A stretch of 64,000 nucleotides of DNA. It comes from an uncultured Rhizobiaceae bacterium (GTDB taxonomy: Bacteria; Pseudomonadota; Alphaproteobacteria; UBA7879; VGCX01). Where the stretch lies: positions 156,120 to 220,119 of the forward strand of contig CAYGKW010000001.1 in assembly GCA_964350815.1 (NCBI GenBank), written 5' to 3'. This document shows positions 35,698-49,985 of the stretch, piece by piece (the first letter of the stretch is position 1; every line of letters begins with the position of its first letter). Both the position numbers and the translations under genes were made by a program. The notes beneath the pieces were generated by a model that was given only the letters and a program-made list of their open reading frames with translations, ran no database searches and was not told the origin of the DNA.

Positions 35698-35773
35698 GGG
35701 CACTTAGCTCAGTTGGTAGAGCAGCTGACTCTTAATCAGCGGGTCACAGGTTCGAATCCTGTAGTGCCCACCA
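35698..35773 (+). tRNA. tRNA-Lys (anticodon CUU)
   Basis: The sequence folds as a cloverleaf. It has a 7-bp acceptor stem GGGCACT/AGTGCCC, an anticodon stem GCTGA/TCAGC with loop CTCTTAA, a TPsiC arm GGTTCGAATCC and an encoded CCA. Confidence 0.85.
35727..35773 (+). repeat. attL: 47-bp 3' half of tRNA-Lys, identical to the copy at 49939..49985
   Basis: Perfect 47/47 identity (GACTCTTAATCAGCGGGTCACAGGTTCGAATCCTGTAGTGCCCACCA) with the distal copy. Confidence 0.8.
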
Positions 35774-35822
35774 CTTAAAATCAAGGACTACAGACGTTCG
35801 TACTATTCTTATAAAACTCTTC

Positions 35823-35842
35823 GGTGCTACCCTGGTGCTACT
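35823..35842 (+). repeat. Inner 20-bp direct repeat GGTGCTACCCTGGTGCTACT (copy 1)
   Basis: Identical 20-mer at 49801..49820, just upstream of the integrase start codon. Each copy sits just inside the att repeats. Possible arm-type or secondary att site. Confidence 0.5.
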
Positions 35843-35889
35843 TTTGGAATATTAAAAAGCTATGCCCAAAAATAAAAGGGATCTTAATT

Positions 35890-36426
35890 ATGAAAAAAAA
35901 CTCAAATAAAATAATCCTTGGAATTCCAGATAATCCAGAAGTTAAGCAAGCTGTAGGAGAACTGGCTATTGCGCATGGAAATATGGAAATGATTTTTATT
36001 TACTGTCTAAAAACTATAGAAGACGTAAAGCCAATACAAGCTATGAAGCAATACAGGAACTCAAGTGGCGAGAAGAAAGGTAAGAAAATTAGTACTAGAG
36101 GAAGAATCACACGTATACTGGATAACAACGTGCCTGAAACTCCTCCTTATAGTGAAGCAAAAGAAAAAATAAATGACTATATAGAAGAATCCTGGAAACT
36201 AACTCATATTAGGGATAGATATCTTCATTGTTTTTGGGGGAAAAGAAATGACTCAGGAAACTGGGAAATAAGCACTGACCACAATATTTGGAAACCATTA
36301 CCTGCTGCCGATGAAATAACAAAACATGCTAAGGAAATTAGTAAATTTTCAGAAGAATTAAACAAAGAAAGACTGAATAAGAATGGAGCGTTCGAATTTA
36401 TAAGAGCGAAATTATCAAAAGCTTGA
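35890..36426 (+). CDS. Hypothetical protein (island cargo)
   Basis: Start reassigned to the ATG at 35890 (MKKNSNKIIL...); the upstream extension runs across the 20-bp repeat. No recognisable motifs. Confidence 0.5.
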   Translation: MKKNSNKIILGIPDNPEVKQAVGELAIAHGNMEMIFIYCLKTIEDVKPIQAMKQYRNSSGEKKGKKISTRGRITRILDNNVPETPPYSEAKEKINDYIEESWKLTHIRDRYLHCFWGKRNDSGNWEISTDHNIWKPLPAADEITKHAKEISKFSEELNKERLNKNGAFEFIRAKLSKA

Positions 36427-36445
36427 TAGTTAATCTTCATTTGTT

Positions 36446-36982
36446 TCAATACAAAAGAGACAACCTTTCAATTTCTTCTTCCATGTTTGATAATATGGAA
36501 GCTCTTAGCCAATCATATTTAGTTTCCCACCACTCAAAATCTTTTATTTTATCAAGTTTTTCGTTTAAACTTTTACTAAAATATTTATTAGAAAAAACTT
36601 TAATTTCATCAAATATTTGTAAACATACCGATTCAAAATTCTTATATTCTTCCTTGTTATGCAATTCAGAAGATAACAATAAAGCATCTATGCCATTTGA
36701 AGATAATCCGCTGCAAACATTAGAAGCAAATTCATTGATTTCAGCAATTCTTTTTTTATTTAAGCGAACCATCGCATTTTTTTGAATAAACAAATCTCTA
36801 GTTTTTTGGAAAACATTTAATTTAATTCTAAACAAGTCTTTTAATCTCTCTTCCTCTCTATATTGTTCTGTTTTAGAATCTGATTTATATCCTATATACA
36901 TAGCAATAATTCCCGTTAATGCAGAAATTATAGAAACTACTAATGTTGTTATTAATATAAAGTTTTTCTGTGAATTTTTCAT
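36446..36982 (-). CDS. Hypothetical membrane-anchored coiled-coil protein (island cargo)
   Basis: 178 aa with an N-terminal TM (FILITTLVVSIISALTGIIAMYIGY) and a charged helical remainder. Convergent with the 35890 gene. Confidence 0.5.
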   Translation of the reverse strand: MKNSQKNFILITTLVVSIISALTGIIAMYIGYKSDSKTEQYREEERLKDLFRIKLNVFQKTRDLFIQKNAMVRLNKKRIAEINEFASNVCSGLSSNGIDALLLSSELHNKEEYKNFESVCLQIFDEIKVFSNKYFSKSLNEKLDKIKDFEWWETKYDWLRASILSNMEEEIERLSLLY

Positions 36983-37075
36983 AAACCTACCTTTTTACTT
37001 TTTAGATTAAATTAATCCCCATTCACATAAATTCAAGTAGGCTAAATAAATTAGCATATTATATAGAAAACTTTT

Positions 37076-47324: not shown

Positions 47325-47630
47325 CTACCTAAAAATTTTAGAGGTTGGACTAGATAAGTTACCTGGAGGTTGTTTGTATTGGCGAAATAAGCAGCAGAGG
47401 TAGCAAATATAAATAAGAAAAGTTATGGATTTTTGTGCTAAAGTAACAGGATGAGTAGTAGTAGAAGTTAGCATTAGCCATCTTCAGTGATTCTTAATTA
47501 TTAAAAAGTTCACAGACAGCAATTTTACCACTTCTTGAAAGAAGTGAATTCAGATTCACTTTTTGTTTTTCTAGTGACAATTGAAGCTTTTGAGGGAACT
47601 GTGTATTTTTGTTAACTCTTAGTTCCTTTA

Positions 47631-48626
47631 TCAAGGCCAACCAAAAAAATAACCTCTATTTTTGGTTAGCCAATTTTCAATTTCAATAAGCTTCTCAATA
47701 ATTTTTTTGGAGGGAATACCTATATGAATTTCTTTATCTTTCCCTTTCTCGTGTTCATTAATCCATTTTATAATGGTCTTGATGCCCTGCTCTTCTGAAA
47801 TTAAATGTTTATCCCCACTATCTTTCAATTTTTCATAAATTGCAGTTGCTGCTTCGGTTTTATTCTTATAGTTATTTTTATTTTCATCCCAATGCTTAAT
47901 TGCAAATTCATTTGATTTTTGAAATTTGTTATTCCATCGTTTTTGGAACCCTTTCTTTCTTGATTTTAGCTCCTTCCAAATCAGAGCAATTCTTTGATTA
48001 GACATAGTATTATAATCTTCAAAAAAAGTTTTAGGTTCAGAAAATTTTCCATGGCGCGTCCAGGAATTATATGAATTACAATGTTCTATCGGTGACCATG
48101 AAGTTTGATTATTAAACTCTTGATAGGCTTTTGAAGCAACTTTTATCCAACTCACTTGATGCATATTAATTTTTAACGAATATTCAGAATTATGCACGGT
48201 GTTTTTTTGGATAGATATATACTCCCCTAGGGATATAAGAAAGATGACAGGAAAGATATCCTTTAACATTAAATCAGTCCAACCTTCATCTTTTAGGTTT
48301 AAAAAAAATTCCTCTTTATTCCATTTATAATATAAATTAAATACATCGAAAAAATCAGGATTCTTAGTTTCTGTACATCTTTGAAAGTGAACTTCATTTC
48401 TAATATTTCTCAATTTAGAAAGTATTCCCTCTTGATTTGTATCAATTAGATTTTCCAAAAAATAAGCTAAGTTTAATATTTCTTCTGTAGAAAATCTTCT
48501 TTGCTTAAAATACTCATTAACATGCCAGAGTTCATGTTGAAAAGGTAGATTATAATCTTCTAATAATGATTTATAATTCTCACCTAGGAGTTCTGAAATA
48601 ACCTCTTGGTATGATTTAGTTTTCAT
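47631..48626 (-). CDS. Hypothetical protein (island cargo, unknown function)
   Basis: 331 aa, W/Y/K-rich, no recognisable motif. Its start overlaps the integrase stop (ATGA). Confidence 0.5.
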   Translation of the reverse strand: MKTKSYQEVISELLGENYKSLLEDYNLPFQHELWHVNEYFKQRRFSTEEILNLAYFLENLIDTNQEGILSKLRNIRNEVHFQRCTETKNPDFFDVFNLYYKWNKEEFFLNLKDEGWTDLMLKDIFPVIFLISLGEYISIQKNTVHNSEYSLKINMHQVSWIKVASKAYQEFNNQTSWSPIEHCNSYNSWTRHGKFSEPKTFFEDYNTMSNQRIALIWKELKSRKKGFQKRWNNKFQKSNEFAIKHWDENKNNYKNKTEAATAIYEKLKDSGDKHLISEEQGIKTIIKWINEHEKGKDKEIHIGIPSKKIIEKLIEIENWLTKNRGYFFGWP

Positions 48627-49798
48627 TTTGACCTACCTTCCTCAGTCACATTCATAAGCATTGCGCTGGTGGCACGGTTAACTGATTCCCTTACTGGATC
48701 AATATTTAATCGAGCATAAATGGCTGTTGCTTGTTGTGTTTTGTGTCCTAAAGATTTCCCAATGACATAGCTGTTGGCTCCAGTGGCCGCTTGCCAGCTC
48801 CCTAATGTTCTTCGTAAATCATGCAATCTTAAGTCTGTCAGATTTGCTTCTTCTAATATTCTTTTCCAGACACGCTTTGGTTCTTCTAAGTGTCCTGACT
48901 GGCTAGTTTTACTGGGAAATACCCAATCATTTTCTTTATAGATATGGCGTTGACGAAGAATTTTGATAATGTCAGACGATAATGGAATAAGATGCGATTC
49001 CCCATTCTTTGTTTCTGGTATGTTCCAAGTCTCCTTATTAAGGTCCACATCTTGCCAACGCATACTTAAGACATTTCCCTTGCGAGCCCCTGTTAAAAGA
49101 CACACCATAAAAAAGTCTGTAAATAATTTATTGGGTTCTTTTGCCAGAGCTTGAAAGAAACGTGATAGTTCTTCTCCTTGTAAAAATCTTTCGCGACTTT
49201 TTTCTTTAAACTTCTTAATACCTTCGACAGGTGATTTTCCATCCCATCCCCAATCCATGGCTTTATTAAACATAACCCCTAAAAGAGCCAACATACGATT
49301 TGCAGCATAAACTCCATTTACCTTTCCTACATTTGAATGGAGTGCTTCAAAGTCAGCTTTATGAAAACTAGAAATCTTTCTTTTCTTTAAATGAGATAAA
49401 TAAAGGCGATAAATATTTTCATCATTCTTCCAAGACTTTTTATGAAGCTTTGCATGTCCCTCTAGGTATCTTTCAAAAAGCTCCCCAAAAGTTAACTCTG
49501 CTTTTAATTTTGATTTCTCACGATTAGGATTTTTGCCTAGAGAAATTTGTGAATTTATACTTGAAGCTTGTCCACGTGCATTTTCAACAGACAGATCAGG
49601 ATAATACCCCAACATAATACGTTCAGGCCGACCTTTAACCTTTCGGTAGACATAAAAAGTTTTTGTTCCTTTGCTTGTAACGGAAATAATAAGAGCACGT
49701 ACTTTTGTATCATAATAATAAAATCTCTTCCCTTGTGGTGGTAAAGGAAGAACCTCCAAAGCTTTCTTAGTAAAGTTAATTTTGTTATCAGTCTTCAT
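48623..49798 (-). CDS. int: Tyrosine site-specific integrase (phage/P4-type)
   Basis: 391 aa. C-terminal catalytic box ...HDLRRTLGSWQAATGANSYVIGKSLGHKTQQATAIYARL (R..HxxR..Y). N-terminal arm-binding-like domain. Adjacent to attR. Confidence 0.9.
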   Translation of the reverse strand: MKTDNKINFTKKALEVLPLPPQGKRFYYYDTKVRALIISVTSKGTKTFYVYRKVKGRPERIMLGYYPDLSVENARGQASSINSQISLGKNPNREKSKLKAELTFGELFERYLEGHAKLHKKSWKNDENIYRLYLSHLKKRKISSFHKADFEALHSNVGKVNGVYAANRMLALLGVMFNKAMDWGWDGKSPVEGIKKFKEKSRERFLQGEELSRFFQALAKEPNKLFTDFFMVCLLTGARKGNVLSMRWQDVDLNKETWNIPETKNGESHLIPLSSDIIKILRQRHIYKENDWVFPSKTSQSGHLEEPKRVWKRILEEANLTDLRLHDLRRTLGSWQAATGANSYVIGKSLGHKTQQATAIYARLNIDPVRESVNRATSAMLMNVTEEGRSK

Positions 49799-49800
49799 TT

Positions 49801-49820
49801 GGTGCTACCCTGGTGCTACT
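49801..49820 (+). repeat. Inner 20-bp direct repeat GGTGCTACCCTGGTGCTACT (copy 2)
   Basis: Identical to 35823..35842. Begins 3 nt upstream of the integrase ATG (minus strand). Confidence 0.5.
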
Positions 49821-49938
49821 CTCTAGGTTAAATTTAGTTAATTTCAGTTGACTTTAGTAAAGAGTGGAATACCATAAAATATAAGGCTGGTAAAGAGAAA
49901 TTAAACTTTGTTAAATTTGAGAAAATGTATGACTTTAA

Positions 49939-49985
49939 GACTCTTAATCAGCGGGTCACAGGTTCGAATCCTGTAGTGCCCACCA
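49939..49985 (+). repeat. attR: 47-bp duplicate of the tRNA-Lys 3' half
   Basis: Exact copy of 35727..35773. Similarity to the tRNA stops abruptly 5' of the anticodon loop. Confidence 0.8.

Follow-up and report, generated by a model that had tools for sequence, protein, structure and literature searches.

A tRNA-Lys-integrated genomic island with phased octamer repeats, most likely integrase arm sites, and its relatives at other tRNA genes of Alphaproteobacteria

We analysed a 64-kb stretch of DNA from an uncultured Rhizobiaceae bacterium (the window), in which a tRNA-Lys(CUU) gene is followed by a 14.2-kb segment (35774-49985) encoding a tyrosine integrase, an AlpA-like protein, a primase-helicase and a very large toxin (Table 1). 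The tRNA had been predicted to be intact and was called so by ARAGORN and Rfam; it is the sole tRNA that ARAGORN found in the 64 kb, and an Rfam scan of 35000-52500 returned nothing besides it. The last 47 nucleotides of this tRNA, which had been predicted to recur perfectly at the far end of the segment, are present in exactly two copies in the 64 kb with 0 mismatches (47/47; chance expectation 0). This core corresponds to tRNA positions 30-76, from the last 2 nucleotides of the 5' anticodon-stem strand through the loop and onward to the CCA. Logan contigs break at the 47-nucleotide repeat, and the GC content is 40-52% in the toxin region versus ~36% in the flanks. Islands integrated in a tRNA gene have an intact tRNA at one boundary and its 3' part directly repeated at the opposite one, and we refer to the boundaries as attL (tRNA side) and attR.

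Table 1. Features of the island and its right flank (positions in the 64-kb window)
Feature	Position	Strand	Basis or remark
tRNA-Lys(CUU), intact	35698-35773	+	ARAGORN; Rfam RF00005, 76.9 bits
attL core, 3' 47 nt of tRNA-Lys	35727-35773	+	exact repeat
attL-side candidate arm sites, two GGTGCTAC octamers	35823-35842	+	49 nt inside tRNA end
178-aa open reading frame, first gene inside attL	35890-36426	+	translation
178-aa open reading frame, hydrophobic N-terminus	36446-36982	-	translation
Helix-turn-helix (HTH) protein, 118 aa (start probably internal ATG)	37076-37432	-	HTH_Tnp_1 and HTH_Tnp_1_2, both below cutoff
Orphan fragment of toxin pre-toxin region, ~69 aa	37539-37745	-	direct repeat and frame translation
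SUKH-family (SMI1/KNR4) immunity protein, 163 aa	37780-38271	-	Pfam SMI1_KNR4 3.7e-17; SUKH_6 8.9e-10
Polymorphic toxin, 2109 aa	38258-44587	-	Colicin-DNase/WHH C-terminus
21-nt element TATCAGATTTATCAGATTTCG (two copies of 9-mer TATCAGATT)	44878-44898	+	beside iterons, upstream of toxin gene
Candidate replication origin	44915-45080	.	seven TGTTTCA/TGAAACA iterons
Primase-helicase, 648 aa	45091-47037	-	Pfam Toprim_3, AAA_25 (RepA/DnaB-like), C-terminal winged HTH; PHROGs DNA primase 2.3e-66
AlpA/excisionase-type HTH protein, 70 aa	47030-47242	-	HTH_17; TIGR01764 excisionase 9.5e-5; phrog_66
331-aa open reading frame between int and alpA	47631-48626	-	translation
P4/CP4-type tyrosine integrase, 391 aa	48623-49798	-	Pfam Arm-DNA-bind_3 5.3e-11, Phage_integrase 3.1e-29
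attR-side candidate arm sites, two GGTGCTAC octamers	49801-49820	+	118 nt inside attR core
Spacer, arm sites to core, 118 nt	49821-49938	.	family alignment
attR core, perfect copy of tRNA-Lys 3' 47 nt	49939-49985	+	exact repeat
Extra strain-specific stretch, 12.3 kb	49986-62271	.	relatives' synteny, Pfam
Beta-lactamase-family pseudogene	~50043-51100		Pfam 1.3e-26, profile positions 59-191/329; one in-frame stop and frameshifts
IS6-type transposase remnant, broken over two frames	~51290-51700	-	

The integrase gene lies at the attR end and faces inward, as predicted, with its start adjoining attR. The N-terminal domain of the enzyme matches the solved N-domain of a CP4-like integrase (PDB 3jtz, 4.9e-5), and the catalytic residues R239, K264, H326, R329, H352 and Y361 are invariant in an alignment with its homologues. 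Together with the P4-type integrase domains, these features support the predicted site-specific integration into tRNA-Lys. A word-based protein search retrieved 6938 homologues at E<=1e-30, mostly alphaproteobacterial, while identity to phage-borne integrases was at most 31%. No close relative was found in a scan of 2.9 million viral contigs (best 21%), and metagenome contigs contained distant relatives only (best 31-35%). A motif scan of viral contigs with GTAGCACNNNNGTAGCAC returned mostly chance single matches, with an integrase nearby in just two contigs (L117 and L125), the first of which encodes an enzyme 44% identical to that of the island. No capsid, lysis, relaxase or coupling-protein match was obtained among the island open reading frames (ORFs) in Pfam, PHROGs or NCBIfam; a prophage was rejected on the ground of the structural genes not found, and a conjugative or mobilisable element on that of the relaxase and coupling protein.

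A second direct repeat of 20 bp (GGTGCTACCCTGGTGCTACT) is nested within the first, and its predicted distances, 49 bp inside attL and 118 bp inside attR, are borne out by the coordinates; the right copy, which had been placed 3 nucleotides from the integrase ATG, actually starts at 49801, 2 nucleotides away from it (CAT at 49796-49798). Each copy consists of two GGTGCTAC octamers at 11-bp spacing, the two copies are 20/20 identical, and the octamer occurs in the window at these four positions only, with 0.6 expected. The original prediction left a choice between integrase arm sites and a nested, secondary integration. According to the second model, a smaller element bounded by the 20-bp repeats would have entered an older, tRNA-bounded island, and two direct-repeat pairs, one within the other, could in principle represent two sets of att sites. 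However, the right copy adjoins the start of the only integrase, no second recombinase was found by Pfam among the ORFs of 35774-49985, and the outer shell would amount to just 49 nucleotides plus 118 nucleotides of non-coding DNA.

The two models were distinguished by comparing six loci that encode integrase homologues 54-70% identical to that of the window (L089, L090, L091, L093, L222 and L224). In all six, the integrase start is preceded by the same layout, consisting of a partial 3' part of a tRNA, ~118-120 nucleotides, and two to three GTAGCAC octamers in 11-bp phase. The partial tRNA begins at the anticodon loop and no full tRNA was called there, and its type differs between loci, being Thr in L089, Arg in L090, Asn in L091 and L093, and Met in L222 and L224, compared with Lys in the window. 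The types of the first four were read from the anticodon-loop sequence of the fragments, and the far ends of these four islands lie beyond the 10-kb flank. Complete islands were available from two cultured Rhodobacterales, Paracoccus saliphilus (CP067140.1, ~3813608-3822495, L222) and Rhodovulum sp. ES.010 (L224), where a direct repeat of 48 and 56 nucleotides, respectively, joins the partial copy to an intact tRNA-Met ~8.8 kb away. In both, a second octamer pair lies 67-69 nucleotides inside the intact tRNA-Met in direct orientation, as in the window. The presence of octamers at the same distances in islands at Asn, Arg, Thr and Met tRNAs identifies them as a conserved part of the element rather than a target duplication. 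Nested integration was thus rejected by the family comparison, and we assign it hardly any probability. Given that the same layout is found in islands at other tRNAs, the octamers appear to belong to the recombination module and are most likely integrase arm-type sites, from which we infer the integrase as the protein that binds them. It follows that one of the two predicted explanations stood while the other did not.

The family alignment also revealed a conserved A/T-rich block (TTTTCTCAAATTTAAC...TTAATTT.TCTTTA) in the spacer between arm sites and attR core, to which a DNA-bending protein may bind or in which the int promoter may lie. Common to the family is a backbone in which a P4-type integrase and an AlpA-like protein are combined with a helicase that ends in an HTH domain and whose gene is closely followed by an iteron cluster. 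Identities are 54-70% for the integrase, 69-72% for the AlpA-like protein (68-aa proteins of L089 and L091) and 43% for the primase-helicase in its helicase-HTH part (against the rep proteins of L089 and L091). One integrase lineage therefore keeps its arm sites and their spacing while changing its tRNA target (Lys, Asn, Arg, Thr, Met), and the succession of a partial tRNA, ~118 nucleotides, phased GTAGCAC octamers and int provides a signature with which further members can be searched. In Rhodovulum sp. ES.010, two tandem islands occupy tRNA-Met with three copies of the tRNA 3' part (L224 2203-9832), and a serine recombinase gene lies just outside them. The second of these islands possesses an integrase only 29% identical and a different 11-bp-phased repeat (CTTCCAC) at the same place.

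The family comparison raises a further question as to which protein recognises the octamers. They could bind the AlpA-like protein, acting as directionality factor or as int activator, instead of the integrase N-domain, with the biology of the island otherwise the same. The AlpA-like protein is 69-72% identical across octamer-sharing islands, its co-variation with the motif being as good as that of the integrase, and the second island of L224, which differs in both integrase and repeat, encodes its own HTH_17 protein. Furthermore, the octamers immediately precede the int start, a position at which a protein activating or repressing int would be expected to bind, and AlpA of CP4-57 raises intA expression. 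By contrast, octamers that flank the core as direct repeats in phase with the helix make up a classic arm-type arrangement, sites for directionality factors usually being found on one arm only, and the integrase carries a dedicated arm-binding domain (Arm-DNA-bind_3; the 3jtz match). We therefore regard AlpA binding as quite improbable and retain the integrase as the likely ligand of the octamers.

Combined, these features suggest how the island may recombine. The integrase would recombine the 47-nucleotide core carried by the circular form with its exact counterpart in the 3' part of the tRNA-Lys(CUU) gene on the chromosome, so that attL would have a complete tRNA and the displaced partial copy would come to lie at attR. 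On the excised circle the two octamer sets would flank the core at a distance of ~214 bp from each other, and the integrase would build the recombination complex on them through its N-terminal arm-binding domain. Because one octamer set lies directly upstream of the int start, repression by the integrase of its own gene is likely, binding at octamers 2 nucleotides from the start codon being the presumed cause. Such self-repression has been reported for IntS of KplE1, whose int promoter overlaps the arm sites (PMC2951348). The AlpA-like protein, a candidate recombination directionality factor or regulator, would probably serve in excision or in regulation. After excision, the primase-helicase may replicate the circle from the iteron cluster behind its own gene, whereas transfer between cells, if it still occurs, would have to rely on a helper, most plausibly a phage, as capsid and conjugation genes were not found in the island.

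Seven iterons lie within 160 bp (44919-45077) directly after the stop codon of the primase-helicase; they account for 7 of the 27 matches in the window, and ~0.07 would be expected in an interval of this size. Different 7-mer clusters were found at the same place in L089 (TGCGACA), L091 (TGCAACA), L222 (CTGACG-type) and L224 (GGCGGAC), such that all five islands have iterons immediately behind rep, with a separate 7-mer in each. In SaPI/PICI-type elements, too, the origin is known to follow rep directly and its iterons to change together with the rep protein. The intergenic region between the primase-helicase and toxin genes is 503 nucleotides long and also holds the 21-nucleotide element TATCAGATTTATCAGATTTCG, a second exact copy of which is located 7.4 kb away at 37499-37519, upstream of the HTH gene, and whose 9-mer occurs exactly nowhere else in the window. 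The element may serve as a common operator or as an additional cis-acting site of replication.

To place the island in its population context, we compared the tRNA-Lys locus between relatives. Exact island proteins occur only in one 243-kb NCBI contig and in Logan run ERR3534985, and the island is absent from the same locus in the close relatives L215, L217 and L225. In L215 and L217 (RodA 99%; 94% nucleotide identity over the 11.3 kb upstream of tRNA-Lys), 0.6 kb without arm sites connects tRNA-Lys to SIS_2/ABC genes that match the window from 62273, and this 0.6 kb includes a frameshifted, 78%-nucleotide-identical copy of the first island ORF. In L225 (RodA 95%), the complete attL arm-site sequence follows tRNA-Lys and is itself followed by ~300 nucleotides and SIS_2, ~0.37 kb in total. 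The 284 nucleotides between this attL scar and SIS_2 (L225 11433-11716) contain inverted repeats, GACCTCTGCATAA ... TTATGCAGAGATCTC, and possibly represent a small repeat element. In L218 and L219 (RodA 91%), tRNA-Lys is followed by a single octamer and a peptidase gene, and both octamers are found at the same distance after it in L004 (RodA 66%). In L003, the nearest species representative (RodA 91%), tRNA-Lys is followed by a different, integrase-less remnant (11423-17800) with an AlpA-like gene, a 317-aa Toprim primase, a 501-aa helicase-like ORF and the HTH gene shared with the window; an attR repeat of this remnant was not found. The shared HTH gene is 78% identical at the nucleotide level, and has thus diverged about as far as the core genome. 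L215, L217, L218 and L225 become syntenic with the window again at 62268-62273, in the SIS_2 gene. The strain-specific DNA thus measures 26.5 kb (35774-62272), made up of the 14.2-kb island and a further 12.3 kb outside the att bounds.

These comparisons answer in part the proposal to look for an empty tRNA-Lys site, in that island-less relatives exist (L215, L217 and L225) but a pristine attB was found in none of the relatives examined, and these three all keep scars. The predicted hotspot, on the other hand, is well supported, as six relatives show six different contents after the same tRNA-Lys and strain-specific DNA extends to 62272, not just to 49985. Judging from these contents, the tRNA-Lys site is used repeatedly by this kind of element. 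A recent gain or loss is suggested by a strain whose flanks are 94% identical and which has no island.

The same data allow another view, namely that the island is a fixed, immobile mosaic produced by repeated integration, recombination and deletion, the att repeats being fossils. Scars of attL or unrelated remnants are present at the same tRNA in L225, L004, L218, L215 and L003, a dead toxin fragment lies at 37539-37745, the HTH gene common to L003 has diverged to about the extent of the core genome, the adjoining 12.3 kb of strain-specific DNA contains pseudogenes, and transfer genes are lacking among the island ORFs. However, the cores (47/47) and the arm sites (20/20) are identical, the backbone ORFs are all full length with the integrase catalytic residues kept, and the element is missing from the strain with flanks 94% identical. 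A fixed resident consequently seems unlikely to us. We instead conclude with considerable confidence, from sequence comparison, that the 14.2-kb segment represents an integrative genomic island which probably replicates itself and belongs to a large alphaproteobacterial family, with the octamers as its likely arm sites.

Several observations weigh against this conclusion, in addition to the lack of transfer genes. Excision to a circle, formation of an attB junction and protein-DNA binding are all deduced from sequence. The promoter scan gave no match to a sigma-70-like promoter on the int strand between core and int start, and, with AlpA no less conserved in the family than the integrase, co-variation cannot tell which protein binds the octamers. 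The left 2 kb has a mosaic appearance, with an HTH gene common to the different island of L003 and a dead toxin fragment. Finally, the tRNA-Lys site seems to have been occupied for long and losses to have been imprecise, as suggested by the arm sites of L225 and L004 and the ORF copy of L215, and the copy in the window could be old.

The largest gene of the island occupies a cargo slot between the origin and attL and encodes a polymorphic toxin. The protein starts with a hydrophobic signal or anchor (residues 21-45), its middle part is a probable beta-solenoid that leads into a Gly/Ala-rich, DUF637-like pre-toxin region (DUF637 5.4e-4, below cutoff), and a Colicin-DNase/WHH nuclease forms the C-terminus (residues ~2001-2103; 2.9e-13 and 2.3e-10 in Pfam). 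The only full-length homologue, P0135, is 25% identical up to the point where IRNN at residue 1802 aligns to its VENN, and is unrelated beyond. An exhaustive HMMER search of 1.84 billion representative proteins with the N-terminal 1200 residues gave only 4 distant homologues, and a shared-word search gave the toxin itself and one weak match. The AlphaFold model of residues 700-1250 has a mean pLDDT of 59 and is confident only at ~760-1090, which are all short beta strands. Foldseek of the model against the PDB returned nothing significant (E>0.3), all matches being beta-helix proteins including TPS domains and autotransporters, and the C-terminus matched solved structures, of Rhs toxins, only at E>0.1. 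No TPS/Haemagg_act domain was matched in Pfam or NCBIfam, and no CdiB/TpsB transporter gene was found in 35774-49985.

The SUKH immunity gene overlaps the toxin stop codon, and the two are predicted to constitute an interbacterial competition or addiction module with a DNase as its effector. The orphan fragment behind them is 74% identical to 39407-39613, matches toxin residues ~1658-1727, and is probably a remnant of toxin-tip displacement. Downstream of P0135 (JGI 3300059473) lie small genes and a pair of orphan DUF637 genes, of 636 and 428 aa, whose partners belong to DUF7957 and DUF7336. Such an organisation is typical of orphan toxin-immunity arrays and matches the orphan fragment in the window. 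Other conflict systems fill the slot in sister islands, with DRT3a and DRT3b in L222, a reverse transcriptase in L224, and Fic and HipA in L089 and L091. The Paracoccus saliphilus genes form a DRT type 3 anti-phage system (L222 15011-18239; Drt3b 3.4e-164, Drt3a 3.1e-91). Large polymorphic toxins, like anti-phage systems, therefore travel on small integrase-primase islands in poorly known Alphaproteobacteria.

The remaining island ORFs are less informative. The first ORF inside attL had no match in Pfam, PHROGs, NCBIfam or PADLOC, and its neighbour at 36446-36982 had sub-threshold matches only (SLATT_6, E 0.0086; PADLOC 2TM effector, E 6e-4). The 118-aa HTH protein shows a weak match to a terminase small subunit (TerS; phrog_4044, E 2.6e-6) that is confined to the HTH part, and just 2 homologues were found in a search with it; a 73%-identical homologue is present in the different island of L003. 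The 331-aa ORF between int and alpA also had no match in Pfam, PHROGs, NCBIfam or PADLOC and remained a singleton cluster; relatives have unrelated ORFs of 277-322 aa at its position.

Beyond attR, the flank is decayed as had been predicted, with both the beta-lactamase-family pseudogene and the IS6 remnant seen. The latter is 80% identical at the nucleotide level to L003 17798-18053 and lies beyond island-type genes in both genomes. The extra 12.3 kb also encodes a 556-aa multi-pass membrane protein and a sugar-modification cluster (GT2, nucleotidyltransferase, 4,6-dehydratase, two DegT aminotransferases, GNAT and a split transketolase), and no att repeat was found at its right end. On the other side, 18 kb upstream of the island, the window contains a type VI secretion cluster (5567-18525) that includes TssC/VipB (6178-7659), TssF (9490-11298), TssG (11253-12311), ClpV (12311-14974), VgrG (14985-17552) and a MORN-repeat protein (17557-18525). 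A 921-aa ORF on the minus strand (1131-3896) with a eukaryote-type protein kinase domain (Pkinase 7.6e-11) adjoins this cluster.

Among known systems, the cargo resembles the CdiA/VENN-type toxins (PMC3482391) in that a secreted-type protein of very large size combines a probable beta-solenoid body with a DUF637-like pre-toxin region and a (V/I)(E/R)NN boundary, followed by a swappable C-terminal nuclease, an immunity gene immediately downstream and an orphan pre-toxin fragment. While the pre-toxin, the boundary motif, the immunity gene and the orphan were all present, the TPS domain (Haemagg_act) and the adjacent CdiB/TpsB partner of CdiA/CdiB systems were not found, and the toxin here rides an integrase island. 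KplE1 (CPS-53), with its IntS and TorI proteins (PMC2951348), is alike in that int reads away from an att site in a tRNA 3' end and that arm-type sites overlap the int upstream region. There, this overlap gives negative autoregulation, whereas regulation here is only presumed; moreover, the overlap lies at attL beside the tRNA in KplE1 and at the partial-tRNA end in the present island, and both the repeat and the directionality factor differ.

With P4-like satellites the island shares int, alpA, a fused primase-helicase with a DNA-binding C-terminus, an iteron origin and a cargo hotspot, which holds defence systems in sister islands. However, the helicase here is of the AAA_25 (RepA/DnaB-like) type and the D5/SF3-type helicase domain of P4 alpha was not matched, and P4-like elements are known from Enterobacterales while the host here is an alphaproteobacterium. 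No island ORF matched psu, sid, delta or epsilon in Pfam, PHROGs or NCBIfam. These genes are among the components of P4-like satellites (PMC8628076). Because psu, sid and delta were not found, the island is not considered a member of the P4 family. Its initial description as P4/PICI-like accordingly holds for the architecture (int, alpA, primase-helicase and iteron origin) and fails for psu, sid, delta, epsilon and the capsid or packaging genes, none of which was detected beyond the weak TerS-like HTH.

PICIs, PICMIs and marine VEIMEs (PMC9618062, PMC10803314) resemble the island in size (~9-14 kb), in possessing int, alpA, a primase/rep and an origin directly after rep without structural genes, in a gene here weakly TerS-like and accessory defence or toxin cargo, and in having alphaproteobacterial relatives. 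The module of these elements was found here in full, as int, alpA, primase-rep and origin with no structural or lysis gene match. Satellites that lack capsid genes and carry an integrase, AlpA, primase/helicase and TerS homologues were found packaged in marine virions and integrated in Alphaproteobacteria (PMC9618062). This raises the possibility that the island is a helper-dependent, capsid-gene-free phage satellite of the VEIME/PICMI/PICI type, packaged by a helper via the TerS-like HTH protein. The backbone with its origin directly after rep and its small cargo slot, the weak phrog_4044 match (2.6e-6), the anti-phage DRT3 cargo of sister islands and the satellites without capsid genes just cited (PMC9618062) all point in this direction. 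By contrast, the integrase lacks a close relative in the 2.9 million viral contigs (best 21%; 44% in one motif match), the TerS similarity is weak and covers the HTH part only, neither a cos/pac site nor a capsid gene nor a homologue of Psu, Sid or delta was detected, and a helper phage is not known. A packaged satellite is therefore possible but doubtful. A bolder version, in which the islands are an undescribed, widespread alphaproteobacterial satellite family without capsid genes, defined by GTAGCAC arm sites, a rep-co-varying origin, retargeting among at least 5 tRNAs and a cargo slot for conflict systems, with the nearly unique toxin exported by some route other than two-partner secretion, seems unlikely. 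In that version, export by such a route would follow from the TPS domain and partner transporter not being found, and a link to type VI secretion would be possible only.

As tRNA-integrated islands with P4/CP4-type (DUF4102, Arm-DNA-bind_3) integrases, CP4-57 and the enterobacterial pathogenicity islands likewise have a tyrosine integrase with an N-terminal arm-binding domain, a small AlpA-type HTH protein, an intact tRNA with a 3' repeat, variable cargo and repeated use of tRNA sites. Unlike in islands of the CP4-57 type, the integrase lies at the distal, partial-tRNA end and not next to the tRNA gene, the host is an alphaproteobacterium, and the island family carries its own replication module and iteron origin. 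The current understanding is not overturned by any of these findings. Taken together, the island belongs to a widespread, unnamed family that is of an already known kind, tRNA-integrated with a P4/CP4-type integrase, and its members in cultured Paracoccus saliphilus and Rhodovulum sp. ES.010 make the family tractable for tests of octamer binding, self-repression, origin function and helper dependence.

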